Shown here one piece after another: positions 52,472 through 63,770 of a DNA stretch of 64,000 nucleotides. Numbering within the stretch: position 1 is the first letter of the stretch; each line of letters begins with the position of its first letter. Position numbers and translations under genes: made by a program. Origin of the DNA: an uncultured bacterium (GTDB taxonomy: Bacteria > Actinomycetota > Acidimicrobiia > Spongiisociales > UBA5794); NCBI GenBank assembly GCA_963801165.1, contig CAWDDT010000009.1, positions 128,001 to 192,000 of the forward strand, read 5' to 3'. The notes under the pieces were generated by a model, which did not search any database, was not told the origin of the DNA, and was given only the letters and a program-made list of their open reading frames with translations.

Positions 52472-53410
52472 TCATCGCCGCAGTCGCGCCGGGAGAATCG
52501 TCTTCCCACGCTTTGCCGCCCATTTGCCGCGCTCGATCGTGGCACGGAACCGTGCTCCGAGCGTCGGGTGAGTGCCTCTCGTCTCATAGCCGAGATCGCG
52601 CAGCAGATCGCCTGCGATGGCCTCGAAGATGGCGATGTCACGGTCGGTCATCGCCTCGGACCAGTCCCGGGTTCCCGTGGTCGGAGGGCGGGCGACATTG
52701 CGGAACGCCTCGGGCTCATGAGAGCTGGCAACGAACTCGTCCGCGTTCTCGTGATAGCGCAGCATCGCCGGTTGCCACGTGAGGTCGAGGAACTCGCAGA
52801 TGCGGCGCACTTCGGTCTCTGTGTCTGCCACGAGGTCTTCATAGCGAACTTCCGTATACCGTGACGGGCCGAGCGCCAGGCCCGCGCTGCGGCCTCGACT
52901 CACCCGGGAGCGCCAGTACAGAGCACCTTCGGCCAGGGTCGATGGTCCCCACGGTCGCTCTATATAGGAGAGCGCGACGTTACGACCGTCGCGTATTACG
53001 TTCACGAACCGGGCCTCCGGGAAGAGCCGGGCGAGCTCCGGGATCTGGATGATATAGCCCGGGGTCTTGTCGCCGTACCGCGGCTTGTCCTGTGCGGCTG
53101 CCCAGAGCACAAAGACGGCTCGCACCGCATCCGACAGGGTCTCCGGCGGCTGTGCCGCCATTGCTGCTTGGACCGCGGATCGTTCCAGCCCCATCCGGCG
53201 ATAGTTGGGGTTCTTGTAGATCGTGTCGAGGAAACGCCCCACCTGAAAGCCGCCCGCGGTAAGCATCCGCTCCTTGCGCGCCACGGTTCCGATGAACTGG
53301 GGTTCGTGCGCCACCGCCAGGTCGGGATGGGCGTCGAAGATGGTTCGCAGCAATGTCGTCCCGGATCTGCCGCTGCCGACAAAAATCGGGAAGGCGTCTT
53401 GTTGGCTCAC
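52472..53410 (-). CDS. Sulfotransferase (Sulfotransfer_3)
   Basis: GSGRSGTT, YGDKTP, IRDGRNVALS, RYEDLV. Confidence 0.92.
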   Translation of the reverse strand: MSQQDAFPIFVGSGRSGTTLLRTIFDAHPDLAVAHEPQFIGTVARKERMLTAGGFQVGRFLDTIYKNPNYRRMGLERSAVQAAMAAQPPETLSDAVRAVFVLWAAAQDKPRYGDKTPGYIIQIPELARLFPEARFVNVIRDGRNVALSYIERPWGPSTLAEGALYWRSRVSRGRSAGLALGPSRYTEVRYEDLVADTETEVRRICEFLDLTWQPAMLRYHENADEFVASSHEPEAFRNVARPPTTGTRDWSEAMTDRDIAIFEAIAGDLLRDLGYETRGTHPTLGARFRATIERGKWAAKRGKTILPARLRR

Positions 53411-54420
53411 TACAGGACGTCGAGCTCACGCAGGATGCGGGCGAACTCGGCGCCGACCGGTTGCATTCCCTCTGCGGTGAAATGGGCGAAGTCGACCTGT
53501 TCGTCGACACCCGCTTGCTTGAGAATCCGATCGACGTCCACGACGTGGAAGTCCAGCTGCTTGGAGAGCTCGAGAAGAGCGATGTGGAACTCGCGGCGGC
53601 GGGTGACGTTGGCCTGCTTCACGAGCTGGTAGTTGTGGGTGAGGTCTTGTGGGTCAACCACCAGGGTCGTGTAGACGACCGGCTCGGCGTGGGCCCGGGC
53701 GCGCAGCTCCTTGACGATCGTTCTGACGTTTGCCATGTAGTCGTCGATCGAAATCCGTCCGACCTTCTCGTATTCCTTGCGAAACCACTGTACGTTGTCG
53801 AGGTCGCCGAGTACCTCGTTGAGGTTCTGGTTTAGCCACCAGCCACCGGGGTCAACCACAAACCCGTGCTTCTTGTTGCGATAGAGGGTGCGAATGACAT
53901 CGGTGCCACCCGACATCACGACGACGTTGCGAGGGAACTCGCCGTACCGCTTCTCGAGCGGGTATTGCAGCGAAGACCCGAAGAACGTTGGTTTGAATTG
54001 CTCGGGCCTGATCTTGAGACGGCGGCACAGCTCCTCGATGGCGTCGCGGGGAATGTTGCCCAGGGTCTGCACGACCTGACTGGTGGCATATGCACCGACA
54101 CCCCCGCCGCGCTCGCGGGATATGGCGAGGCTTCCCTTGATGCCCTCACGCATCAACGGAGCCCCGGTGAACACCGAAGGCAGGTCACAGCCCCCCCGGA
54201 GGGCCACGCCGCGTCTTGGTCCGTCGAAGGCCTCGTTCTCGCCGATCAGCACGAACCCGTTCCCGGCCTTCTGGACCCACCCGGGTCCCGACTCCGTCGC
54301 CACCCTGCCGCGGGCCTGCTTCATATAACGCCGTTTGAGGAAACGTTCGACCTTCGAGTCTTCGCCTGCCACCGACCGCAAGGCACGGTGGCCCAGTTTC
54401 AATCCTTTGGAGACGGGCAT
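53410..54420 (-). CDS. SGNH-like protein, GGCD...DFAH (module copy 1, protein A1)
   Basis: GGCD at block-I position, VVDVDRIL, DFAHF; paralog of 59965-60927. Confidence 0.65.
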   Translation of the reverse strand: MPVSKGLKLGHRALRSVAGEDSKVERFLKRRYMKQARGRVATESGPGWVQKAGNGFVLIGENEAFDGPRRGVALRGGCDLPSVFTGAPLMREGIKGSLAISRERGGGVGAYATSQVVQTLGNIPRDAIEELCRRLKIRPEQFKPTFFGSSLQYPLEKRYGEFPRNVVVMSGGTDVIRTLYRNKKHGFVVDPGGWWLNQNLNEVLGDLDNVQWFRKEYEKVGRISIDDYMANVRTIVKELRARAHAEPVVYTTLVVDPQDLTHNYQLVKQANVTRRREFHIALLELSKQLDFHVVDVDRILKQAGVDEQVDFAHFTAEGMQPVGAEFARILRELDVL

Positions 54421-54421
54421 C

Positions 54422-54847
54422 TCACTCCTCCTCGATGTCGACGGCGTTGGCGACAACCCTGATGGACGGAAGCGACGCGATGTCCTGGGCGGCTTCCCCG
54501 CCGGGCTCCCCGCCCGACGCGAGCAGCGCCAGCGTGTCCCCAACCTTCATCCCCCCGCCGGTCGCAACCAGATGCTCGAGGACCACACCGCCCTCGGACG
54601 CGACCAGCTGGAAGCGGAGACCGGATGTCTCACGTGTCTCCACCTCCTCGCGCACCTTCTTCTTGCGGCGCAGCGACGTGAGGATGCTTGCCTGCTGGGT
54701 CTTGCGCAGGGCGACTACTTGCTCGATGGAGACGACGCAGAGCTCGTCGCCAAAGATGAAGGATTCGCCCGGGGCCTTTGACCACTTGATCACGCGGCCG
54801 CCCTGGAGCTGGGGACCGACCGAGGGCATCTGGAGGGTCAGCTTCAT
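54422..54847 (-). CDS. Lipoyl/biotinyl-like domain protein lacking the acceptor lysine turn
   Basis: MPSVG...GRVIKW.K.PG...GDELC and ASEGGVV...GGGMKVGDTLA flanking a ~30 aa insert. Confidence 0.7.
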   Translation of the reverse strand: MKLTLQMPSVGPQLQGGRVIKWSKAPGESFIFGDELCVVSIEQVVALRKTQQASILTSLRRKKKVREEVETRETSGLRFQLVASEGGVVLEHLVATGGGMKVGDTLALLASGGEPGGEAAQDIASLPSIRVVANAVDIEEE

Positions 54848-55536
54848 TGCCGTTCCCCGCGGGTGCCAACCTGCGCCACCAAAGTTCGCTCGTCGAAGAA
54901 CCCGTAGTCCGCGAGAACTCGCAATGTCTCGTCCCGCACCATCGCCGACCCCTCCGGCGAGAGCTCCAGCGGCCCGGGAACGACCTTGCCACCGCCCGCT
55001 TCGGCGACCAGCCGGTCGACGTCGATTACCGAGAGCCCGACCTCGTGGGAGGTTTGGAAGAGGGCAAGGTTGATGCGATGGGCACGAAGCATGATCGGCT
55101 CGACTGAAAACCCATGGAAATTGGAAACCGGGTCACCGGGGTCGAAGCTCGATACCCCGACCACGAGCACATGGGCACCGCAGTCTCGCTTGATCGCGTC
55201 GAACACGGCGACCAGGTCGTCATGGAAGCCGGCAACCGCATCCCGCGGGTCCTTCGCCCGGTTGGTGAGCTGCTCGGCCTCCCCGCTCACGTCGAGGACC
55301 ACGACATGTGGTGTAGATCCGTAGATCGATTCGAGGGTACCGGCGTCGAGCCGGGTGCGCAGGTCGCCTAGACCCCCGTACTCGTCGTATGTCACGGCCA
55401 GCTCGACGTTGGACGGTGTGGTGTTCAGCTCGGTGGCCAAGCCGTGATCGAGATGGGCCCCACCGTCGTTCTTGGCCAGGAACGCGTTGCGCACGACGTC
55501 GCCACCAAGCGCCAGCACACGCATCGTTTCGGTCAT
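54844..55536 (-). CDS. SGNH-like protein without catalytic motifs (module copy 1, protein B1)
   Basis: VSSFDPG, RAHRIN, VIDVDRLVAE; similar to N-part of 60938-61936 and C-part of A1. Confidence 0.65.
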   Translation of the reverse strand: MTETMRVLALGGDVVRNAFLAKNDGGAHLDHGLATELNTTPSNVELAVTYDEYGGLGDLRTRLDAGTLESIYGSTPHVVVLDVSGEAEQLTNRAKDPRDAVAGFHDDLVAVFDAIKRDCGAHVLVVGVSSFDPGDPVSNFHGFSVEPIMLRAHRINLALFQTSHEVGLSVIDVDRLVAEAGGGKVVPGPLELSPEGSAMVRDETLRVLADYGFFDERTLVAQVGTRGERQ

Positions 55537-55613
55537 TGGTACTCCCCCTCAGAAGTTCTATCCGCCCGTCGATGAGCGTAGCAGCGGCCCCATTCGGTTC
55601 GGGACAGGTTTTT

Positions 55614-56513
55614 CTAAATGCCCCAACCCAAGTCAAAGTCCAGCAGTTGTTCCAGATCGCGGTTGGAGTCGGCGTAGCGTGCTGCGAGCTCGGAGCCGAC
55701 CGGCTCGGGAATGTTGGGCTTCTCCAAGGGCTTCCTGGCATAGCTGTAGTTACGGAACTCGGACGGCGACCAGCGGGCGGCACCGACGAAGTCGAGTATC
55801 TCCTGGAGCACCGCACCGGGGTCGGCGAAGAACTCGGAACTCTCGAGGATGAGGAAGTTCTCCCTCGGAAAATGCTCGAACCAGCGACGCAATTGCTCGG
55901 CGTAGAACCCGCGCGTCGCATACGAGTAGCGACGAAACGGCATCACCCTCGCCAGCGGATCCCGTTTCATCTCATCGAGCTGTCCGGCGAGACGATCCTG
56001 CTCGGCAGCAATTGCGTCGGGGAACGACAGCTCCTCCAAACCGAGGCGGGCCATGTGGTGGTAGTGGGAGAAGGCCCGTTCGACGGGCTCGCGCAGCAAG
56101 ACGACGAGCTTGGCGTCGGGAAGCAGACTGCGGAGACGCTCGGGAGCCCGGGGATCGAAGAGGTAATCGGGGGTTGCCTCGAACGTGAGCAGCGATCTCC
56201 CCATGGCCCGGTGCAGCAGCCGTCTCATCTTCAGGGGATAGTGGGCCCGGTACCAGGCTTCCCCCCGGCCGTAGCCGATGGTGAAGTACTCGATCTCCTT
56301 GCGCAGCGACGGTGCTATTTCGGGGTGCCGGCCGAGGTACTTGTACAGAGAGCTGGTCCCGCAACGCTGCCCACCGATGATCACGAAGTCGGGGAGCATA
56401 CGGTACCGGGCCGTGAGAGTGCGCAGACGCAATCTGATGCGCACCAGCTTGCGGCGAGCAGCCATGGGCGTGACGGTCTTCAAGGCGTCGACGGCCCGCT
56501 GCCGCCAACTCAT
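55614..56513 (-). CDS. Sulfotransferase (heparan-sulfate-ST-like)
   Basis: PDFVIIGGQRCGTSSL, KEIEYF, EATPDY, LREPVERAFSHY. Confidence 0.92.
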   Translation of the reverse strand: MSWRQRAVDALKTVTPMAARRKLVRIRLRLRTLTARYRMLPDFVIIGGQRCGTSSLYKYLGRHPEIAPSLRKEIEYFTIGYGRGEAWYRAHYPLKMRRLLHRAMGRSLLTFEATPDYLFDPRAPERLRSLLPDAKLVVLLREPVERAFSHYHHMARLGLEELSFPDAIAAEQDRLAGQLDEMKRDPLARVMPFRRYSYATRGFYAEQLRRWFEHFPRENFLILESSEFFADPGAVLQEILDFVGAARWSPSEFRNYSYARKPLEKPNIPEPVGSELAARYADSNRDLEQLLDFDLGWGI

Positions 56514-56661
56514 CGGCGAATACCAAACATCACAAGCCCCTCCCACCCCGGCGGTTGAGCGGGCAGCGTAACATCGCCGGACCGGTCGCAAGGGCCGGAT
56601 GCCCGATACTGTGGGGTCCGCGGGGCAGCCGCGCGACCGCCTCCTATAGTGACCAGGAATC

Positions 56662-57267
56662 ATGACCAACCAGAAGGTCTTTGGCATCGGTTTTCACAAG
56701 ACCGGGACGACGTCGCTGGCCCGTGCGCTCCGGGTTCTTGGCTACCGTGTCGCCGGTCCGTTTGGCGTCCATGATGCCGACATCTCCGCCACGGTGGTCG
56801 CCCGTGCGATCGAGACCGCCGGTGAGTGGGATGCCGCCCAGGACAATCCATGGCCGATCGTGTTCCGCGACCTCGATCGTGCGTTCCCCGACTCCAAGTT
56901 CATCCTCACGACCCGTGTCACCGATGATTGGCTGCGCAGTGTCGTTCGGCACTTCGGGGGTACGACGACCCCGATGCGGGAATGGGTGTACGGGGTCGGC
57001 GACCCGGCCGGTAACGAGAGTGTCTACAGGGAACGGTACGAGCGGCACAACCGTGAAGTCGTGGAGTATTTCGCAGAGCGACCGCAGGACCTGTTGGTGT
57101 TCCGGCTTGCGGATGGTGACGGGTGGGAGGAGCTGTGTGGATTCCTCGGTGTTGCCGTACCCGAGCAGCCGTTCCCGCACGCCAACGCTCGCGGGGAGCG
57201 AAGCACGATGCGCGTGCTGACTCGTCGGGCACGCCGCATACTGGGACTTGGTCCTAGGCGCCCTTGA
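56662..57267 (+). CDS. Sulfotransferase-like protein (Sulfotransfer_4)
   Basis: KVFGIGFHKTGTTSL, FPDSKFILT.R, GWEELCGFLG, PFPHAN. Confidence 0.88.
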   Translation: MTNQKVFGIGFHKTGTTSLARALRVLGYRVAGPFGVHDADISATVVARAIETAGEWDAAQDNPWPIVFRDLDRAFPDSKFILTTRVTDDWLRSVVRHFGGTTTPMREWVYGVGDPAGNESVYRERYERHNREVVEYFAERPQDLLVFRLADGDGWEELCGFLGVAVPEQPFPHANARGERSTMRVLTRRARRILGLGPRRP

Positions 57268-58114
57268 TCGCTGCCGCCAGCCAGTCGGCCGATTTGTCGG
57301 CGAGAGTGTTAGCAGCGTGATGACGGTCTTGCGACACCTGTTCCGCCAGCCACCACGGCTCGCTGCCGGTGCGGTCTTGATTTGCCACGTCGATGCCGGC
57401 GTGTGACCACGCCTCCACGATCGGTTCCATGTTGAGCGATCCAAAGGGAACGATCATCACCTTGGTCTCCAGCGGGGTGTAGTCGCTCAGTTTCTTTCCG
57501 GCGATGCTGTTGTGAAACGCCGACGTGATCTCGTAGCCGAGCAGCTCGACCACTCCGTCCTGGTCCAGCCGCTTCAATACCTTGTCCAGCGATTCGGGCT
57601 TGGCCTCGGCTTTGAGAGCCGCGATCGCGTGGCTACGCACCGCATCGCGAATGAATGCGTCCGTGTCCGGAATAGGATCCCACAGCAAGATCGCGGTGCC
57701 CGCCTCCTCCTCGGCGAGCGCCGCCGCGGGGTAGGCGCCCAGCCGAACCGCGGCGTAGCCGACCCGGTCCAACCCGGTTCGTTCCTTCAAGCGCGACCTC
57801 ACCTCGCGACCAGCGTCGATCATCGCCGGGAGCGTGAGGTCGGTGTCGAGCCCTTCGCTGTTGCCGTCGCCGCGGTATTGGAAACGATGGACTGCGATGC
57901 CGCGGGCCGCCAGAGCGCGGGCGAGTACGACCTCGAGGTGATACGCCTTGAGCATCTCGGCATGGGTGGAGCTGCAAATGACTACGGCGCCTTCGATCTC
58001 GCCGGCGGGAAGGTGGATGCTGCCCAACATCTGGGGGGCTTCGCCGAAGTAGGCGATCTCCTCGGTGATCCCGGTGATCGGGTGGCGACGGGTTGCAGCG
58101 ACGTTCGTCGTCAT
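57254..58114 (-). CDS. Alpha/beta-hydrolase-fold protein lacking the nucleophile
   Basis: LARALAARGI..HRFQYRGDGNSEG; elbow AVRLGA; LLWDP. Confidence 0.78.
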   Translation of the reverse strand: MTTNVAATRRHPITGITEEIAYFGEAPQMLGSIHLPAGEIEGAVVICSSTHAEMLKAYHLEVVLARALAARGIAVHRFQYRGDGNSEGLDTDLTLPAMIDAGREVRSRLKERTGLDRVGYAAVRLGAYPAAALAEEEAGTAILLWDPIPDTDAFIRDAVRSHAIAALKAEAKPESLDKVLKRLDQDGVVELLGYEITSAFHNSIAGKKLSDYTPLETKVMIVPFGSLNMEPIVEAWSHAGIDVANQDRTGSEPWWLAEQVSQDRHHAANTLADKSADWLAAAIKGA

Positions 58115-59055
58115 GGGGTCATCTCCTCCACCCACGCCACCGAGGTCTTGATGACGATGTCCTGGATGCGTACCGAGAGGAAGCCTCTGACGACTCCGGG
58201 CACGACCTCGACCGCGACCAGATCGGCGAACCGTTCCAGTTCCCTGCCCAGCCGGGCCTCGCTGGCCTCCTGAAACTCGGTCCAGAAGAAATCATCGTCG
58301 CCGTAGAGAAAACGGACGGGCACGCCATCGCTCAAGAGCCGGCGCAATGGGCGGTGAAAACCGGGGTCGGCATCTCGGGGGTCGGAATCACCGGCCGTCT
58401 CCTGCCTCTTGTCCGCCGCGTCACGGGAAACGCCGAGCTTCCTGGCAACGATCCGCACCGCGGCCTTGCGTGCGGTCGGATTCTTTGCCAGCTTGCGGAC
58501 GATGCGTTTCGAGAAAACCCTTTTCGCCAACTCCCCGGTGCTGACGTGCTCGGCGAGGTGGTCTGCGCCACCTACCCCTTTGGTGCCACTTCGGGTCGGC
58601 GGAGCGAATAGGTACAGACCGCGGACCCTCGGGTCGCCGGCCGCCCCGTGCAGTGCTCCTCTCGACCCGTAGCAGGTGGCGATCACGAGTATGTCGGTGA
58701 CCCCACGCGAGGCGAGCAAATCGAACGCAGCCTTAGCTTCGGGTACCGCGGGGGTCTCGAGCTCGTAGCAGAAGGGCTCGCCGATGCTGTCGCCGAGACC
58801 GGTGTAGTCGAGACGAAGGACCGGGTATCCGCGCTCGGCCAGCGATCGAGCCAGCTTCAACCACATGCGGTTGCGCCCGAGCGTTGTGGTGCCGCCGAAC
58901 GTGCCCGACATCAGCAGCACGCCGGTCGTTTTCGGCTCGACTTTGGTTGGCTCGCTGAGCAAGCCGAAAATCGTCTTATCCGGTTCCGGGAAGAAGACCG
59001 GCATGTCTCTGGACAGGGCCTCAATTGGCTGGTCAGTGCTCACATCGACCGTCAC
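58111..59055 (-). CDS. Alpha/beta-hydrolase-fold protein with Cys at the nucleophile elbow
   Basis: NRMWLKLARSLAERG..LRLDYTGLGDS; elbow ATCYG; LYGDDD. Confidence 0.78.
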   Translation of the reverse strand: MTVDVSTDQPIEALSRDMPVFFPEPDKTIFGLLSEPTKVEPKTTGVLLMSGTFGGTTTLGRNRMWLKLARSLAERGYPVLRLDYTGLGDSIGEPFCYELETPAVPEAKAAFDLLASRGVTDILVIATCYGSRGALHGAAGDPRVRGLYLFAPPTRSGTKGVGGADHLAEHVSTGELAKRVFSKRIVRKLAKNPTARKAAVRIVARKLGVSRDAADKRQETAGDSDPRDADPGFHRPLRRLLSDGVPVRFLYGDDDFFWTEFQEASEARLGRELERFADLVAVEVVPGVVRGFLSVRIQDIVIKTSVAWVEEMTP

Positions 59056-59173
59056 GCGCAAGTCCCCCTTGCCTGGCTTTGCGTGCGGGGATTGTATATC
59101 GCCACCTCTCTGGCCCACTACAAGTTGCACGTCGCTGCCCTGTAGTCGGTCCCCCGGTTAGTATCGCTCGCTC

Positions 59174-59959
59174 ATGGAGATGGCGAAGCGCGCGCGTATG
59201 ATCTTGTGGCCGGCACTCGCTGCGGTCTTGTTGGTGACAGCATGCTCGGGGACCACCACTGCGACGACGACGTCCTCTACCGAGCCGCCCGGCACCTCGA
59301 CGACGGTGGCCGACACCACAACTCCACCAACTACCGCAGCGACGACGACATCGACCACATCTACGACGGCTGCGGTCACTCAGGAAGGAGCGGGACACGG
59401 GTCCGGGATCATCGGGATCGTTGGGTGCTCCAACTCGGCGATGGCCGCAGCCGGCTACGACGTGGTCTCCGCCAAGGACTATCTGACGCAGGGGGGTCTC
59501 ACCGGGGGATCCATTGCCGTCTGGGGCAATCCGGGCCCCGCCCGGTACGACCGCTACTGGGGGCTGTACGACGACCGGCGGCCCACCGATGGCTACACCG
59601 CCACCTGGTTCCAGCTGTGTATCCGGACCACGGAGCACAAAGGGAGCTTCAACGACGAGATCAAGGGCTGGATACAGCACGTTGTCGACCAGATCCACGA
59701 GCGCGATCCCGGGATCCCGATCTGGATCTCCCCGGTCAACAGCTACACCGATGGACTGGTGTGCCCCACGATCGGAGAAGAAGGTGCGGCCATCGCCACC
59801 GAGGCTGCTGATTGGGCGGCGGGGAACGTCTCCGGGGTGGAGCGGGGACCCGACCTGGGCCCGATCCACGCCGACGAGCTCGACCCGGGCGAGCAATGTC
59901 ATCCAAATCTGACGGGGCAGAGCGCCCTCGGGGAGCAGCTAGTCGCGTTCTTCGATTAG
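59174..59959 (+). CDS. Lipoprotein with SGNH-like domain
   Basis: Lipobox VTAC, Thr-rich linker, IVGCSNS, QCHPN..G. Confidence 0.7.
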   Translation: MEMAKRARMILWPALAAVLLVTACSGTTTATTTSSTEPPGTSTTVADTTTPPTTAATTTSTTSTTAAVTQEGAGHGSGIIGIVGCSNSAMAAAGYDVVSAKDYLTQGGLTGGSIAVWGNPGPARYDRYWGLYDDRRPTDGYTATWFQLCIRTTEHKGSFNDEIKGWIQHVVDQIHERDPGIPIWISPVNSYTDGLVCPTIGEEGAAIATEAADWAAGNVSGVERGPDLGPIHADELDPGEQCHPNLTGQSALGEQLVAFFD

Positions 59960-59964
59960 GAGCG

Positions 59965-60927
59965 TCAACTGAACACCTCGCGTTCACGCAGCACCCGTAC
60001 GAACTCCTCGGCAATCGCCTTCTTGTGCTCGGGCATGTACTTGACGAAGTCGCCGAGCCCTGACACACCGACCCCCTTCAGGATGCGGTCGGCGTCGACA
60101 ATCGAGAAGTCCATCTTCCTCGACAGCTCGATGAGCGCCAGCGCGTACTCCCGGCGCCGGGTGCGATGCGGGCTGTGGCTCAGCTTGTAGTCGAAGACTT
60201 GTCGTCCTGGATCAACCGTCAGCGTGTTGAGGTAGACGACCTCGGCGCCGAGCCGCTGGCGCACCAGGTTGACGATCCGCTCGAAGTTCGCCATGGATTC
60301 CTCGAGGGGGAGCCGGCCGGCCTTCTCGAAGTTCTTGGCGAACCATTTCACCGTGTCGAGGTCGCCTAGCGCTTCCTTGATGTCGGCTGCGAGCCAGAAC
60401 CCGCCCGGGTCGACGAGGAAACCGTGCTCCTTGTGCCGGTACAGGGTTCGGGACAGATCCGTGGACATAGTCAAGACGACGACGTTCTTCGGAAACGCAC
60501 CCATCTGCTCATGGCCGGGCACTACGAACCCGGGCTCGAAGAGCACCGGTTGGAACATGTTCTTCTCGAGTTGCAGCCGCTCAGAGACCTCGGCGACCGC
60601 GTCGGCGTCGACTCCGTCGACGGTCTGGAGGATTAGATCTGATCGCGTGAATTGTGCCCGCCCCGCGGCCCAGGCGGCGCCGGTTGCCGATGTGGCGCGG
60701 CGCAACCACGGGCCGGACTCGGCGATGATCCAGGTGTCGCAGCCACCGTACCCGAAGACACCGATTCTCTTCTCGTCCCCGCGGAACACCACGTAGGTTG
60801 TCTGCTTGGTCATCCCCGAGGTGCGCAGAGCGGTGCGGTTCCTCATCCGACGCAGCTTGGTCTCGATGGCGCTGTCGTCGCCGGCGAAGCGGCGCAAAGT
60901 GCGCACGGCCCTCTTCTTCAGCTTCAT
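59965..60927 (-). CDS. SGNH-like protein, GGCD...DFVK (module copy 2, protein A2)
   Basis: Shares RTLYR.K.HGF.VDPGG.WL, LGDLD.V.WF and TRRRE with A1. Confidence 0.7.
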   Translation of the reverse strand: MKLKKRAVRTLRRFAGDDSAIETKLRRMRNRTALRTSGMTKQTTYVVFRGDEKRIGVFGYGGCDTWIIAESGPWLRRATSATGAAWAAGRAQFTRSDLILQTVDGVDADAVAEVSERLQLEKNMFQPVLFEPGFVVPGHEQMGAFPKNVVVLTMSTDLSRTLYRHKEHGFLVDPGGFWLAADIKEALGDLDTVKWFAKNFEKAGRLPLEESMANFERIVNLVRQRLGAEVVYLNTLTVDPGRQVFDYKLSHSPHRTRRREYALALIELSRKMDFSIVDADRILKGVGVSGLGDFVKYMPEHKKAIAEEFVRVLREREVFS

Positions 60928-60937
60928 CTGACGTTCC

Positions 60938-61936
60938 TCACTCTGCCGTCCTCGTCCCCACCCGGAAGTCCGCACCTGCCAATTCGCTGCCCGCGTCACC
61001 CTCAGGTGATGTCACCATGACCCCGGCGACGTCACCGGCGGTGGCGGCCGCACCGTGGGGAACCGTGATCTCTCGCAGGTACGCGGCGCCTCCGGCCACG
61101 ACGGTTATGTCGATCGAGCGCACACGCTCGGCCTTCCTGGATCGCCCACCGGTCTTCTCCGGGTTCGTGTTCTCATCCTCGTGTCCCATATCGAAGCGAT
61201 GCACCCGCGTCTCGAAACGAAAGTCGAATAGCGGATCGCCGTCGGCGACTGCTGCGCCCGGGCTCACGTGCCATCTGGTCACGGTGCCTACCCTCGTCCT
61301 GCGGTCGAAGCTCGGGATGACGAGCCGCATCACCGGTGCTTGCAGCGTACCTCCGAGCGCTCCCGATTGATCGATGGCCGTCACCGCCTCCTCGGTAAGG
61401 AAGTCTAAAGCGGCGCCGGTCAACTCGCCCGGGCCGGGAACAGTCTCGATTCCGCCCACTTCGGCGACGGCGCCGTCAACGTCGATCACCTGGATGCCGG
61501 CATCGCCGGCCCGGTGCTCGAGATTGGCAAGCAGCCGATGCGCCCTCATGGCGAACGTGTCGGGCACCCCGCCGTATCTATGTACCCGCTGGGTCGGGTC
61601 GTAGGTCGAGACCGTGAACAAGAACAGCGTCACGTCGTATCCGGCGAGCAGCTTGGCGACGGTGACGAGATTGTCGATGGTCTGGTCCGGCTCGAGCGGA
61701 TCGGGTTGGAAGAGCTCCATATGAAGCGAGGTGATGAGCGCGCCGGCAGGTATCGTGTTCGCACGCACGTACCGCACCAACGCATCGCTCCGCATCGCCG
61801 GGAGCCTGGTGATCGCGGCTCCGGCCCGCTCTTCGAGCAGACCGGGGCGACCGATGGTCGCGACTATGTCAGGCGACTCAGTCAACGTGACCGCGCGCTC
61901 GCCCACCCTGGATGTCGTGTCGTTCAAAGCCATCAT
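60938..61936 (-). CDS. Fusion of SGNH-like B domain and pseudo-lipoyl domain (module copy 2)
   Basis: VSTYDP, RAHRL, VIDVDGAVAE, then GTVTRWHVSPG..VADGDPLF; start uncertain. Confidence 0.68.
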   Translation of the reverse strand: MMALNDTTSRVGERAVTLTESPDIVATIGRPGLLEERAGAAITRLPAMRSDALVRYVRANTIPAGALITSLHMELFQPDPLEPDQTIDNLVTVAKLLAGYDVTLFLFTVSTYDPTQRVHRYGGVPDTFAMRAHRLLANLEHRAGDAGIQVIDVDGAVAEVGGIETVPGPGELTGAALDFLTEEAVTAIDQSGALGGTLQAPVMRLVIPSFDRRTRVGTVTRWHVSPGAAVADGDPLFDFRFETRVHRFDMGHEDENTNPEKTGGRSRKAERVRSIDITVVAGGAAYLREITVPHGAAATAGDVAGVMVTSPEGDAGSELAGADFRVGTRTAE

Positions 61937-62094
61937 CCCCCACGAGTCTGTCGTGAGAATAGCCACGGGTTCTGCCTGGTAGAGGGCGAAGCCGATGTGC
62001 ATACCCAGGGCGCGTTACCGCCCCCCGGCAGGATCGCGTCGGGTGTAAGGTCTCGACTCAGTTCAGTCGCACCAGGCGCGATCACGAGGGATCG

Positions 62095-62886
62095 ATGAGT
62101 GTTGTCACGTACGGGGATCGGGCATTTCGGCGCGCCACGGCGCCGCTGCGGCACTACCCCGGATTCCTGATTATCGGTGGGATTCGGTGCGGCACGACCT
62201 CTCTGATCCGCTACCTCGGTGAGCACCCCGAAGTCGCTATCGCCTCGACCAAGGAGCCGCATTTCTTCGACTGGAACTTCGGGCGCGGCGACAACTGGTA
62301 CCGATCCTTCTTCCCGCTGCGCGTAGCCGGCAGGCATCTCGTCGTGGGTGAGTCGAGCCCCGCCTATCTGATGGACACGCGGGCGCCGGCCCGGTCGGCC
62401 GCCTCGATGCCGGAGGCCAGGCTGCTGTTGCTCGTGCGCGACCCGGTGGAGCGAGCGCACTCTCACTACCGCTACCGGTACGAACGGGGCCACGAGCCAG
62501 CCGCCACGTTTGAAGAGGCGCTGGCGCTGGAGGAGGAGCGCTTGAAGCAGGCTGTTGCCTCAGGCCGGGGACAATCGCTGCTGAGCGGATACTTCCATCA
62601 CGGGCTGTACGAGACCGGTCTCAGCCGGTGGCTCGAGCATTTCGACCGCTCCCAGATCATGACGATTGCCAGCGAAGATTTCTACGCCGACACCAGTGGC
62701 GTCTTCGCTCGCATTCTTCGCTTCCTGGGATTGACCAACTATGAGCTAGACCATTACGCCGTGCACAACGCCGCCGCGAGCGCCACGATGGATCCTGTCA
62801 CCAGAGCGAGCCTCGTGGACCGCTACCGGGAGCCGAACGAGCGGTTGTACGAGCTGATTGGCGTCGACCTCGGATGGGCCCGATGA
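62095..62886 (+). CDS. Sulfotransferase (heparan-sulfate-ST-like)
   Basis: IIGGIRCGTTSL, KEPHFF, ESSPAY, RDPVERAHSHY. Confidence 0.92.
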   Translation: MSVVTYGDRAFRRATAPLRHYPGFLIIGGIRCGTTSLIRYLGEHPEVAIASTKEPHFFDWNFGRGDNWYRSFFPLRVAGRHLVVGESSPAYLMDTRAPARSAASMPEARLLLLVRDPVERAHSHYRYRYERGHEPAATFEEALALEEERLKQAVASGRGQSLLSGYFHHGLYETGLSRWLEHFDRSQIMTIASEDFYADTSGVFARILRFLGLTNYELDHYAVHNAAASATMDPVTRASLVDRYREPNERLYELIGVDLGWAR

Positions 62887-63770
62887 CGAAGCTGACGTCG
62901 GTGTTGATCCTATCCGACAAGTCATCGGGGTCGAGTGTGCTCCAGCGCGAGCTCGCCCGACACTCTGGCGTGAACACGATGCGGAAGCCGCCCCACCAGG
63001 AAGGGGAGACCCTCTATTGGAGCAAGTGCGCGGCCCTCCTCGGCCTGCCGCAGCCGGCCATGATCGACTCGAAGCTCCTACCGATGTCGGCCGGCCGGGC
63101 AAGCTCCGCCCTGGCGAATCTCATTGCCGCCAATCTCGACGGCCCTGTTGCGACGCCGGCGACCCGTGCCGAGGTCTTCGCCGTGTGGCGTGCGCTCACG
63201 GAACAGTACGCACCTGCGTTCCTGGAGAAGTCGCCACATCACCTGCACAATCGAGCCGTTCTGGAGCTGTTGCTCGACGCCGCCGCGAGTCTCGACGACG
63301 TCGATTTTCGTTTCATCGGTCTCGTGCGCAACCCACTCGATACTCTCTACTCCATGTGGCAGCGTTGGCGCACCGTACCCGAGGCGAGGGCCGGTGAGTG
63401 GTGCCGGGCATACGAAAACCTTTTGTGGCTGCAAGACGCTGTGCCGGGAGCAATCCGAATCATTCGCTACGAGGACATGGTCACGCAACCGGCCGTAGTC
63501 ACCGGTGTGCTCGATTTCATCGGTGTGACGCCGGATCCGATCGTGGGTGAGGGATTCCACCGTGGATCGCTTCACGCATGGAGAGACGACTCGAGGTTCG
63601 GCTACCAGCCGGATTCCCGACTCCGTGCACTGGCCGGCGCGTTTGGCTACGGCCCGGACGATCTCGACAGCGGCGCCAGCCGCTTGTGGCCGTTCGAGCG
63701 TGAGCTGCTGCACAGGGTGCGCCGGCTCCGGACGAGGGCGGGGTCGATCTGGCGGTCGGGTAGACATTGA
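62883..63770 (+). CDS. Sulfotransferase family protein
   Basis: SDKSSGSS, FLEKSP, VRNPLDTLYS, RYEDMV; ATGA coupling. Confidence 0.82.
   Translation: MTKLTSVLILSDKSSGSSVLQRELARHSGVNTMRKPPHQEGETLYWSKCAALLGLPQPAMIDSKLLPMSAGRASSALANLIAANLDGPVATPATRAEVFAVWRALTEQYAPAFLEKSPHHLHNRAVLELLLDAAASLDDVDFRFIGLVRNPLDTLYSMWQRWRTVPEARAGEWCRAYENLLWLQDAVPGAIRIIRYEDMVTQPAVVTGVLDFIGVTPDPIVGEGFHRGSLHAWRDDSRFGYQPDSRLRALAGAFGYGPDDLDSGASRLWPFERELLHRVRRLRTRAGSIWRSGRH

Follow-up and report, generated by a model that had tools for sequence, protein, structure and literature searches.

A Lysine-less Lipoyl-Fold Protein Is Encoded in a Conserved Module with Two SGNH-like Proteins in Acidimicrobiia and Other Bacteria

A 141-aa protein from an uncultured bacterium of the Acidimicrobiia, here called LIP, has the fold of a lipoyl domain and lacks the acceptor lysine, and its gene sits between those of two SGNH-like proteins, A and B, in an unnamed three-protein module (A-LIP-B) that is conserved in at least four phyla. 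On balance, we favor the view that LIP is a nonlipoylated adaptor of this module, which would be an acyltransferase fed by a carrier protein and built around a Cys-dependent SGNH enzyme resembling TviD. The module probably decorates a sulfated cell-surface sugar polymer. All coordinates below refer to the window, the whole 64,000-nucleotide stretch that we analyzed (contig CAWDDT010000009.1, positions 128,001 to 192,000).

A Lipoyl Fold without the Acceptor Lysine

The LIP gene and its parts are the following.

54422–54847 (−): LIP, 141-aa lipoyl-fold protein without the acceptor Lys (ORF translation, Pfam, profile, and structure model)
54713–54847 (−): LIP aa 1–45, first half of the β-sandwich, with Gln43 (codon 54719–54721) at the position of the acceptor Lys
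54614–54712 (−): LIP aa 46–78, 33-aa insert ALRKTQQASILTSLRRKKKVREEVETRETSGLR, net charge +6 (profile alignment; low model confidence)
54494–54613 (−): LIP aa 79–118, second half of the β-sandwich (…LVASExG…VGDxLA…; profile alignment and AF2 model)
54425–54493 (−): LIP aa 119–141, acidic linker and conserved C-terminal strand (I/F)-R130-V-V-A-N (alignment and model)

The translation of the ORF is the 141-aa protein quoted in the preliminary description of this DNA, which had seen in it both signature halves of the lipoyl β-sandwich, and sequence and structure comparisons bear this out. Pfam Biotin_lipoyl (PF00364) matches LIP at 24.0 bits (gathering score 22.1, E 3.4e-5) over aa 4–41 only, and the Pfam scan of the 141-aa protein found no domain besides this one. 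A profile of 16 close LIP homologs matched E2/E3BP lipoyl domains of known structure (E 3.5e-10 to 1e-5), with LIP 1–45 aligned to lipoyl residues 1–45/50 and LIP 79–118 to the residues immediately after. Structure prediction, which had been proposed as a check, likewise recovered the lipoyl fold: the model is a flattened β-sandwich of two four-stranded halves (AF2, VIA-align, and Foldseek) to which are added the insert and one extra strand, with a pLDDT of about 85–90 in the core and below 50 in insert residues 46–74. VIA-align superposes LIP on the PDHK2-bound L2 lipoyl domain 3crk_C with Z 11.3, rmsd 1.8, and 83/87 residues aligned, and target-normalized Foldseek TM scores against isolated lipoyl/BCCP domains range from 0.70 to 0.86. 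An ESM Atlas search with LIP returned generic biotin/lipoyl clusters only.

It had further been claimed that the E-T-D-K-A turn is replaced by a basic insert. The insert (A46–R78) and the loss of the Lys stand, but the turn itself is retained: S40-I-E-Q43-V fills the E-T-D-K-A positions, with Gln for Lys, and the insert is placed after it. The acceptor lysine at the hairpin tip (E-T-D-K-A / A-M-K-M) is absent both from LIP and from a second copy in the window, described below, which has Thr. Because no Lys is present, we rejected the reading of LIP as a normal lipoylated or biotinylated carrier. The observation that no 2-oxoacid dehydrogenase or biotin carboxylase lies nearby also extends to the contig, where our search found no E2 catalytic core and no biotin carboxylase; the 3 E2 cores and 2 biotin carboxylases that the genome does encode all lie on other contigs. 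LIP thus shares with the lipoyl domains of E2/E3BP (PF00364) the β-sandwich and its two recognizable sequence halves, but differs from them in its Gln, its insert, and its extra conserved C-terminal strand, and also in its surroundings, which include no E1, E2-core, or E3 partners on the contig and consist of SGNH-like, sulfotransferase, and hydrolase genes.

The second copy of LIP is part of a fused protein and is accompanied by a paralog of B.

60938–62002 (−): ORF of a fused A-LIP protein, 354 aa, with its LIP domain at aa 225–354 (60941–61330; family profile)
59965–60927 (−): B2, paralog of B (39% identity), likely start M25, with GGCD kept and DFVK in place of DFAH

This copy falls under every Pfam cutoff (PF13533 at 13.7 against 29.8) and is recognized by the LIP family profile at E 2.6e-20. 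As had been described, it carries a different insert of similar length at the equivalent site (31 aa, 61109–61201); that insert is not basic, its net charge being 0.

Judged by its sequence, LIP is a member of a real protein family and not a degenerate one-off. The family search recovered 840 representatives at E ≤ 1e-3; among the best 150 matches, 106 are 115–175 aa long and most cover nearly the entire profile, and relatives of about 140 aa account for at least 106 clusters. Not one of 107 aligned members has Lys at the acceptor position, which is occupied instead by Glu (57), Gln (11), Asp (11), Ser (6), and others. P8, W22, G27, and G33 are near-invariant throughout the family, and W22, G33, and R130 are invariant in a 98-sequence alignment; R130, in the C-terminal strand, is found in 106/107 members. 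A, LIP, and B all lack an NCBIfam model, whether taken from the window or from an Anabaena locus, and homologs of the three proteins, where their sources name them, are called hypothetical, biotin/lipoyl-containing, or SGNH/GDSL hydrolase family proteins.

LIP Is Embedded in a Conserved Three-Gene Module

The two partners of LIP are encoded on either side of it, on the same strand.

54844–55536 (−): A, 230 aa, SGNH-like paralog of the C-terminal half of B, without the Cys/His catalytic residues
53410–54420 (−): B, 336 aa, SGNH fold, start at M42 of a 377-aa ORF, with C78-D79 (GGCDL) at codons 54184–54189 and H313 at 53482–53484

A, LIP, and B are a translationally coupled trio. The start ATG of LIP overlaps the stop of A (ATGA) and the ATG of B comes directly after the stop of LIP; overlapping start and stop codons link A, LIP, B, and the sulfotransferase gene ST1 (ORF coordinates with the corrected start of B). 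Related loci, gathered with an alignment of B, number 79 and are distributed over Acidimicrobiia, Chloroflexota, Gemmatimonadota, and Cyanobacteria (four phyla). They hold 84 full-length B genes, and LIP lies directly upstream of 77 of these; among the remainder, LIP is downstream for 2, the contig ends for 1, and there is none for 4. An A-like domain in turn lies directly upstream of 70/78 such LIPs, in the same ORF in 19. LIP also occurs fused to its partners: the second copy in the window is an A-LIP protein, and one genome encodes all three as a single A-LIP-B chain of 666 aa.

Complex prediction, fed with alignments built in this analysis, suggests that the three proteins assemble. A+LIP+B scored 0.72 (runs 0.73, 0.55, and 0.72) against 0.00 for the best control; the runs share at least 31% of their contacts, and partner pLDDT is 71 or higher. 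The mark for this score is attained by 58/80 solved complexes and 2/110 mismatched pairs, in a calibration on single-chain pairs. The predicted interface comprises LIP 11–12, 32–33, 82, 84–86, 127, 130, 132, and 134–135, A 210–228, and B 256–269, and places a conserved surface of LIP, R130 included, on the C-terminal tail of A, which is itself conserved (D-Y-G-F-F-x-x-R-P-L-x-x-Q-x-G), and on the HNYQ loop of B (262–265). In the geometry that we propose from this model, the β-sandwich of LIP would clamp the A tail and the B loop beside the active-site region through the R130 strand together with the surfaces of G33 and S84-E85. LIP, a barrel-sandwich hybrid that would no longer be a cofactor carrier, would then be the structural adaptor of A-LIP-B. 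The preliminary description had already supposed that a carrier fold was repurposed as an adaptor, and this idea is supported by the missing Lys (0/107), the position of LIP upstream of B (77/84), the fusions, and a complex prediction that passes its controls.

A lipoyl fold with comparable modifications is known from the periplasmic adaptors HlyD, AcrA, MexA, and ZneB: as described in PMC4446572, their lipoyl domain lacks the lysine, and the loop that would carry it bears an insertion thought to be complex-stabilizing. As in those proteins, the insertion in LIP falls between the half-motifs (LIP profile positions 45 and 79), and LIP aligns with HlyD (5c21) at Z 9.3. Unlike them, LIP has an insert of about 33 aa with no coiled-coil hairpin in the prediction (pLDDT <50), appears as a cytoplasmic stand-alone 141-aa domain without β-barrel, membrane-proximal domain, or anchor, and partners SGNH-like proteins, not transporters. 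We rejected the possibility that LIP is a fragment of an efflux-pump adaptor because the other adaptor domains and a transporter partner are both missing. Beside the efflux adaptors, LIP would be a second, independent case in which a lipoyl fold, minus its Lys and plus an insertion in the lysine loop, has become an assembly element.

B Is an SGNH Protein with a Candidate Cysteine Nucleophile

The fold of B is that of SGNH proteins. Foldseek gave E 3.4e-6, and the model matches 3rjt at Z 13.7 (model residues 68–332), PatB at 11.2, and SsfX3 and OatA at 10.6. Block I of B reads G-G-C78-D79-L and follows strand 69–75, with Cys78 at the junction of strand and helix that block I occupies; the canonical G-D-S with its Ser nucleophile is absent, and the D-x-x-H of block V is present (D310xxH313). 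C78, D79, and D310 occur in 77/77 homologs and H313 in 70/77, the other 7 being B2-type proteins with Lys at this position, the window's B2 included. A putative oxyanion residue, Asn251, is found in 73/77 homologs and is replaced by Thr in the window's first B. A sequence search with the B profile against solved structures returned one chance-level match only, and when hhalign compared the B alignment with a canonical SGNH protein encoded in this genome, the probability was 1.6%; because these sequence comparisons failed, the block-I register, with either C78 or D79 at the Ser position, is taken from secondary structure and aligned ranges only. A, which lacks the Cys and His, appears from sequence to be catalytically dead.

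SsfX3, PatB, and OatA (Z 10.6–11.2) are SGNH-fold acyltransferases. The PDB title of SsfX3 names a salicylyl-acyltransferase of a tetracycline pathway, which makes it an SGNH precedent for aromatic acyl transfer. All three are single polypeptides with a Ser nucleophile. In contrast to B, none has a lipoyl-fold partner.

A closer functional parallel may be TviD, the Cys-dependent SGNH O-acetyltransferase of the Vi antigen, and B most likely acts like it, with Cys78 as the putative nucleophile and with a different donor. According to PMC8760489, TviD is an SGNH protein whose block I lacks the GDS and in which C18A and H253A each abolish O-acetylation; it is cytoplasmic, its substrate is a GT4-made, ABC-transporter-dependent glycan, and it binds its partner through an extra domain. 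B resembles TviD in several features: an atypical block I, a candidate Cys nucleophile (G-G-C78-D), a DxxH motif (D310-x-x-H313), and GT4 genes in 28/41 long loci. The two differ in that TviD uses TPR repeats whereas B has a lipoyl-fold subunit and a dead paralog, and in that the donor is acetyl for TviD and would be a carrier-protein thioester here.

A Carrier-Protein Cassette amid Sulfotransferase Genes

The module of the window is surrounded by the following genes.

52472–53410 (−): sulfotransferase ST1 (PF13469, 125 bits), whose start overlaps the stop of B
55614–56687 (−): sulfotransferase ST2, upstream of A on the same strand, domain from aa 99, start codon uncertain
56662–57267 (+): sulfotransferase ST3 (PF17784)
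57254–59130 (−): two adjacent α/β hydrolases with weak likeness to hydr2_PEP and hydr1_PEP (exosortase A system-associated hydrolases)
62095–63770 (+): candidate sulfotransferases ST4 (62095–62886) and ST5 (62874–63770), divergent from the fused A-LIP gene

ST4 and ST5 were named without a Pfam scan: jackhmmer searches seeded with them arrived at the ORF sets also obtained from ST1 and ST2, and blastp matched them to ORFs in two related genomes that are also hit by ST2. NCBIfam had nothing for either.

Across loci, the trio is part of a wider cassette, consisting of a PigA-like dehydrogenase (ACAD), an amino-acid adenylase, a carrier protein (ACP), and sometimes a halogenase, amid sulfotransferase and GT4 genes. 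Among 41 loci of at least 18 kb, 22 have the ACP, 20 the adenylase, and 18 the ACAD; all three occur in 13 and at least one in 28, while 13 have none of them within 9 kb. The same 41 loci include 30 with a sulfotransferase, 28 with a GT4, and 10 with a halogenase-like gene. The Anabaena locus has the order ACAD-adenylase-ACP-flavin halogenase-A-LIP-B; in the genome studied here, the ACP, adenylase, and ACAD lie in the same island, 26–30 kb downstream of LIP and not adjacent to it. The adenylase is above the cutoff of TIGR01733 (397.1 against 317.4 bits) and the carrier protein above that of PF00550 (22.6 against 20.8 bits). The top NCBIfam matches of the ACAD are PigA (471.5 bits, equivalog cutoff 500) and RedW (443.9, cutoff 650), the next family scoring 337. 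The preliminary description had mentioned an ACP as a possible partner of LIP, and an ACP indeed forms part of the system, accompanying the trio together with adenylase and dehydrogenase genes in many loci.

This gene content recalls pathways that build pyrrolyl-2-carboxyl-S-carrier intermediates, which share with the cassette a stand-alone adenylase, a small carrier protein, a PigA/RedW-like flavoprotein, and, in some loci, a flavin halogenase. In coumermycin A1, for example, CouN7 transfers the carrier-bound pyrrole acid to a free acceptor, as described in PMC8748450. The cassette differs from such pathways in having the SGNH/lipoyl-fold trio as candidate transferase and not an α/β-hydrolase alone, in that no PKS/KS genes were seen, in its setting, which is a sulfated envelope-glycan island and not an antibiotic cluster, and in PigA/RedW scores that remain under the equivalog cutoffs.

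We propose a pathway in which the donor would be an acyl group on the carrier protein, made by the co-conserved adenylase and PigA/RedW-like dehydrogenase. The acyl group may be pyrrole-2-carboxyl, halogenated in some lineages, and B, using Cys78, would pass it on to a glycan hydroxyl; this glycan would itself be sulfated and exported by an ABC transporter. A more ambitious proposal, which we advance tentatively and consider doubtful in its entirety, is that A-LIP-B represents an undescribed class of carrier-protein-dependent glycan O-acyltransferases, with LIP as a clamp between the Cys-SGNH subunit and its dead paralog and with the insert positioning an anionic partner, which would place pyrrole-2-carboxyl (halogenated in some lineages) onto sulfated envelope glycans of Acidimicrobiia, Chloroflexota, and Cyanobacteria. 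No paper on the A-LIP-B module came up in literature searches, judging by the titles listed, nor did any report of pyrrole-2-carboxyl chemistry on a bacterial envelope polymer. Such a system would link antibiotic-style carrier-protein chemistry (adenylase, PigA-like dehydrogenase, and halogenase) to the sulfation and acylation of surface glycans. Both a carrier-protein-fed Cys-SGNH transferase and an unusual acyl decoration on the envelope polymers of Acidimicrobiia are directly testable hypotheses. Acidimicrobiia are abundant and mostly uncultured, and cultured cyanobacteria (Anabaena and Microcoleus) carry the module, so that bench tests are feasible.

The Insert Is Variable and Usually Basic

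The insert of LIP opens with a family motif, L-[RK]-R-T-x-R-A-x-x-L, which is followed by a variable R/K-rich stretch. Across the 107 members, its length ranges from 7 to 64 aa (below 22 aa in 4), and its net charge has a median of +6, against −9 for the rest of the protein; 16 inserts have a charge of 0 or less. Within the adaptor reading that we prefer, the insert would grow from the hairpin that bears the lipoyl-lysine in true carriers and would form a flexible, lineage-variable arm; strongly basic here on an acidic body, it probably engages an anionic partner, be it the carrier protein, PAPS or a sulfated glycan, or the membrane.

More specific roles can be weighed against the charges of these inserts and of the proteins encoded nearby. 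The insert could be a docking arm for the acidic carrier protein, with LIP delivering the acyl-S-ACP to B, and the charges are suggestive: the ACP domains of these loci have a median net charge of −13 over about 80 aa (n = 41; −14 for the ACP of this genome), opposite in sign to the typical insert, and in the 9/65 loci (those with enough upstream sequence) in which an ACP gene lies directly upstream of A, the inserts also have a median of +6. We nevertheless regard this role as unlikely, given that the four cyanobacterial inserts have net charges of −4, −3, +1, and +2 although the ACPs of their operons, in the same gene string as LIP, have −10 to −12, and given the net-0 insert of the window's second copy. 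Since the cyanobacterial inserts are not basic, docking of the ACP by charge is not universal.

To a similar degree improbable is a coupling of acylation to sulfation, in which the basic insert would bind the sulfated product, PAPS, or a sulfotransferase. Sulfotransferases occur in 56/79 loci, and here ST1 overlaps the stop of B. The median insert charge is +6 where a sulfotransferase was detected (n = 52) and +2 where none was, among loci of at least 15 kb (n = 12), and the most basic inserts belong to the extra stand-alone LIP copies that come right after a sulfotransferase gene (median +9, n = 19); we treat these contrasts as descriptive, and not as a statistical test, because the loci are close kin and sulfotransferase detection is incomplete. 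Detection missed another sulfotransferase family in two cyanobacterial loci whose inserts are not basic, and the A-LIP-B core is also found without a sulfotransferase within 9 kb, both of which speak against the coupling.

Less probable again is a passive role for both: the insert would be a disordered loop that is simply tolerated, and LIP a linker left over from a fused ancestor, doing no more than hold A and B together. Beyond its first ten residues, the insert is poorly conserved across the family, its length varies widely, its model confidence is low, and several fused forms have short inserts of 15–19 aa. Against this, the first part keeps its motif (L47 in 60, R/K49 in 75, A53 in 73, and L/I56 in 81 of the 107 members), and within Acidimicrobiia the insert is almost unchanged over its whole length, which argues for selection.

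Finally, it is very improbable that LIP is still a carrier, with a residue of the insert or the sandwich taking a noncanonical covalent group such as the acyl group itself: its fold is that of a swinging-arm carrier and K49, S54, and S58 are invariant among its 16 closest relatives, but across the 107 members none of the insert's Lys, Ser, Thr, or Cys residues is conserved, the invariant W22, G33, and R130 either are structural or belong to the predicted interface, and the neighbors that were annotated showed no ligase-like gene. The preliminary description had entertained such a modification on the insert and had suggested aligning homologous inserts to look for an invariant residue. The alignment speaks against it: no residue is invariant among the 107 inserts, position 49 is Arg in 67 and Lys in 8, position 50 is Thr in 36 and Ser in 11, and Lys is missing altogether from 15 inserts. 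In the AF2 model, helix within the insert is limited to residues 51–54 (pLDDT <50), and the insert lies outside the confident part of the predicted A-LIP-B interface.

A lipoyl fold without its acceptor lysine

LIP, the protein quoted in the preliminary description, is encoded between two partner genes, A and B:

53410–54420: B, an SGNH-fold protein, with its start placed at M42 of the listed ORF as judged from homologs
54422–54847, minus strand: LIP, 141 aa
54844–55536: A, an SGNH-like protein, whose end falls inside the LIP start codon

The ATG of B directly follows the LIP stop, and B in turn shares an overlap between its stop and the first codon region of a sulfotransferase gene. Only residues 4–41 of LIP match Pfam Biotin_lipoyl (24.0 bits against a gathering score of 22.1), and in NCBIfam it scores best against E2 subunit N-termini. 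A profile of LIP and 15 close homologs picked up E2 and E3BP lipoyl domains of solved structure (E 3.5e-10 and weaker). Its positions 1–45 pair with lipoyl residues 1–45/50, placing "s-i-e-q-v" beneath "e-t-d-k-a", and positions 79–118 pair with the lipoyl-domain residues that come directly next. From these alignments we conclude that both lipoyl halves are present, with Gln43 in place of the acceptor lysine and a 33-residue insert (46–78) just past the turn.

Structure prediction, proposed in the preliminary description as a check, gave an AF2 model with a core pLDDT of about 85–90, insert residues 46–74 below 50, and an additional C-terminal strand at 131–136. Superposed on the PDHK2-bound L2 lipoyl domain, the core gives Z 11.3 and rmsd 1.8 over 83/87 residues; BCCP domains are further structural matches, and the split lipoyl domains of HlyD, EmrA, CusB, MexA, and AcrA rank lower. 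Alignments and model thus bear out the earlier claim that both halves of the lipoyl/biotinyl signature are present. The same description had the acceptor hairpin replaced by an insert of about 30 residues: the lysine is indeed lost and the length is about right, but the turn is kept and the insert follows it. It was also correct that no 2-oxoacid dehydrogenase or biotin carboxylase lies nearby, since the three E2 cores and two biotin carboxylases of the genome are all on contigs other than that of LIP. LIP belongs to the lipoyl-fold superfamily by its fold and half its sequence, yet lacks the lysine that defines it.

A word-indexed search returned 16 close relatives (54–99% identity, Acidimicrobiia where named) with a nearly invariant insert, and an exhaustive profile search returned 840 representatives at E ≤ 1e-3. 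Among the best 150, 106 are 115–175 aa long, and in most the profile is covered almost end to end; family counts were taken on an alignment of 106 relatives plus the query (107 sequences). The acceptor position is Glu in 57, Gln in 11, Asp in 11, Ser in 6, and Lys in 0/107, and P8, W22, G27, G33, G103, and R130 are near-invariant. The insert (median 33 residues, range 7–64) opens with L-[RK]-R-T-x-R-A-x-x-L and continues as a variable Arg/Lys-rich stretch, with a median net charge of +6 (at least +4 in 81/107, zero or below in 16/107); outside the insert, all 107 proteins are acidic (median net −9). We sought a conserved insert lysine in this alignment and found none: K49 is invariant among close relatives, but the position is Arg in 67/107 and Lys in 8/107 family-wide, and 15/107 inserts contain no lysine. 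On sequence grounds, family-wide loss of the lysine excludes a conventional cofactor carrier, and, judging by the alignment, a fixed insert residue is unlikely to bear a new modification of the non-canonical kind raised earlier.

The lipoyl domain of periplasmic adaptor proteins is the closest precedent for this feature. LIP, by contrast, is cytoplasmic and stand-alone, has other partners, and carries an insert without a predicted coiled coil, and on these grounds we rejected its membership in that family.

A conserved gene unit

The interest of LIP comes mainly from its module, which is undescribed and widely conserved. Our literature searches turned up no description of an A-LIP-B module, and apart from generic labels its homologs are named "hypothetical protein". 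Among 401 sampled genomes of the phylum, 53 match the LIP profile at E ≤ 1e-8, in only four at full length; the other matches run from position 1 to around 50 and no further, inside long E2-like frames. The order A-LIP-B beside sulfotransferase genes recurs in 2/3 of the other full-length genomes, and one sampled genome joins all three as a single protein:

Related locus L034, 793–2793, minus strand: A-LIP-B triple fusion, 666 aa, with an 85-aa carrier protein and an AMP-binding enzyme encoded ahead of it

Starting from 42 aligned B homologs, we gathered 79 loci, mostly labelled Acidimicrobiia or Actinomycetota, with six from Chloroflexota, four from Cyanobacteria, and one from Longimicrobiales. 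LIP is directly upstream of 77 of their 84 full-length B genes and directly downstream of two; four more lack a LIP, and the remaining B gene sits at a contig end. An A-like domain directly precedes 70/78 such LIPs, in 19 cases within the same reading frame.

In many Acidimicrobiia loci, a further stand-alone LIP copy sits immediately behind the sulfotransferase that follows B (A-LIP-B-ST-LIP′), an arrangement not found in the window's genome, and two loci (L055, L063) have a LIP′-type copy after B and no LIP between A and B:

L039, 11028–11444; L040, 5706–6125; and 17 further loci: extra LIP′ copies, insert 35–36 aa, median net charge +9 (n = 19)

Partners and predicted complex

The B model (mean pLDDT 85) has an SGNH domain at residues 68–332, with two helices and a small sheet ahead of it. 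GDSL esterases are its best structural matches (Z 13.7), and same-fold acyltransferases also match (PatB, Z 11.2; OatA, 10.6; the salicylyl-acyltransferase SsfX3, 10.6). Behind the first strand, at the site of G-D-S in SGNH enzymes, B reads G-G-C78-D79-L. Residues C78, D79, R177, D190, D295, D297, K301, and D310 are kept in 77/77 full-length B sequences, and H313 of the D-F-A-H block in 70/77, with Lys in the other seven. A published precedent for such a block I Cys is TviD of the Vi-antigen locus, described in PMC8760489 as an SGNH-family O-acetyltransferase without the GDS motif, whose O-acetylation is abolished by C18A and by H253A and whose extra domain binds a GT4 polymerase. A matches the C-terminal half of B as a paralog, lacks the invariant residues of B, and has its own conserved C-terminal tail, D-Y-G-F-F-x-x-R-P-L-x-x-Q-x-G. 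Pfam and NCBIfam hold no model for A or B.

When A, B, and LIP were predicted together as three chains, each from its own alignment, LIP scored 0.72 (runs 0.73, 0.55, 0.72) versus 0.00 for the best of three controls; no less than 31% of contacts agree between runs, and partner pLDDT does not fall below 71. The same mark was reached by 58/80 solved complexes and 2/110 mismatched pairs, counts that apply only roughly to a three-chain job because the calibration was built on pairs and its own alignments. Confident LIP contacts are at residues 11–12, 32–33, 82, 84–86, 127, 130, 132, and 134–135. In the model, the conserved A tail (210–228) contacts LIP, including D210 with R130, as does a B loop (256–269) that contains near-invariant P257 and H-N-Y-Q 262–265 and is disordered when B is modelled alone. 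With its contacts on the A tail and B loop, the model puts family-conserved LIP residues in the interfaces. This prediction and the natural fusions support LIP as the putative clamp of an A-LIP-B heterotrimer, in line with the earlier proposal of a lipoyl fold repurposed as an adaptor.

The duplicated cassette and neighboring genes

The cassette is duplicated within a region of unusual sulfotransferase density, with five genes in 11.3 kb (52472–63770):

52472–53410: ST1, Pfam sulfotransferase match, with a weak NodH/NoeE-like match
55614–56687: ST2, Pfam sulfotransferase match
56662–57267: ST3, Pfam sulfotransferase match
57254–59130, minus strand: two overlapping alpha/beta-hydrolase genes, weakly like exosortase A system hydrolases 2 and 1 (60 and 68 bits in NCBIfam, far under cut-offs)
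59174–59959, plus strand: lipoprotein-like ORF with a Thr-rich stretch, between the two cassettes
59965–60927, minus strand: B2, a paralog of B
60938–62002: A-like domain fused to the second LIP copy (C-terminal 130 residues; LIP family profile E 2.6e-20)
62095–62886: ST4, named solely on local jackhmmer and blastp matches
62874–63770: ST5, named likewise

The seven B proteins paired with a fused A-LIP (B2 and those of L037, L097, L100, L101, L111, and L112) all keep GGCD and read D-F-V-K for D-F-A-H, a block V His-to-Lys change; they are either degenerate paralogs or users of a different catalytic base.

Near-identical DNA to 52472–56687 occurs in assemblies labelled salt marsh and soil metagenomes; seven sequencing runs, with no RNA run among those listed, contain at least half of the sampled words from this stretch.

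Possible partners of the insert

In the second LIP copy, Thr takes the place of the lysine and the insert is 31 residues long, so the similar length and shared site reported for it hold, but this insert has a net charge of 0. Support is mixed for the insert as an arm for an acidic carrier protein, the ACP dock of the preliminary description: carrier proteins have a strongly negative net charge (median −13, n = 41; −14 in the window's genome), but cyanobacterial LIPs, with the tidiest carrier-protein operons, have inserts of net −4, −3, +1, and +2, and the insert of the window's second copy carries no net charge. Evidence for a tie to sulfation is only suggestive. In loci with a detected sulfotransferase, inserts have a median of +6 (n = 52), versus +2 (n = 12) in loci of at least 15 kb without one, although these loci are close kin and detection overlooked another sulfotransferase family; the most basic inserts (median +9, n = 19) belong to the stand-alone LIP′ copies of many Acidimicrobiia loci. 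The insert is absent from the confident contacts of the three-chain prediction. As read from the alignments, the family keeps an insertion at the lysine loop that opens with a short, amphipathic-looking stretch, and the charge of this insertion is a lineage trait.

A carrier-protein cassette and a proposed pathway

Upstream of A in Chloroflexota and all four cyanobacterial loci are acyl-CoA-dehydrogenase-like, AMP-binding, and small carrier-protein genes, and many Acidimicrobiia loci have this same trio within 9 kb. Of the 41 loci that span 18 kb or more, 22 have the carrier protein, 20 the adenylase, 18 the dehydrogenase, 13 all three, and 28 at least one; sulfotransferases occur in 30, GT4 in 28, polysaccharide deacetylase in 18, and flavin-halogenase-like genes in 10. 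Alpha/beta-hydrolase pairs recur in nine of them, beside a second carrier-protein gene. In the window's genome, carrier protein, adenylase, and dehydrogenase lie 26–30 kb beyond LIP on the same island, which also has GT4, deacetylase, CapD-like, GNAT, SLH-domain, and ABC-transporter genes. The adenylase passes the NCBIfam amino-acid adenylation model. The dehydrogenase is best matched by two prolyl-carrier-protein dehydrogenase families, below both cut-offs (PigA, 471.5 bits against 500; RedW, 443.9 against 650), with the next family at 337. Anabaena sp. UHCC 0451 has the order sulfotransferase, GT8, PigA-like dehydrogenase, adenylase, DUF3179, carrier protein, Trp-halogenase-family flavoprotein, A, LIP, B, GT2, the halogenase-like gene being located between carrier protein and A. 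Flavin-dependent halogenase-like genes occur in 14/79 loci (Actinomycetota, Chloroflexota, and Cyanobacteria), by a search that may catch other FAD monooxygenases:

L102, 6161–7504: flavin-dependent halogenase-like gene, similar in 13 other loci

In the pyoluteorin, prodigiosin, and aminocoumarin pathways, such a gene set makes a pyrrolyl-2-carboxyl-S-carrier protein, which is halogenated on the carrier. For coumermycin, CouN7 shifts the pyrrole acid from carrier to a free acceptor, as stated in PMC8748450. No ketosynthase was seen in the A-LIP-B loci, which makes A-LIP-B the obvious candidate for off-loading: it would take the acyl group from the carrier protein and probably pass it to a glycan hydroxyl. 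The module would thereby link carrier-protein chemistry with the way sulfated envelope glycans are decorated. The lipoprotein-like ORF and SLH-domain proteins further along the island (L036, 4966–8874) suggest that this glycan is tied to an S-layer-type envelope.
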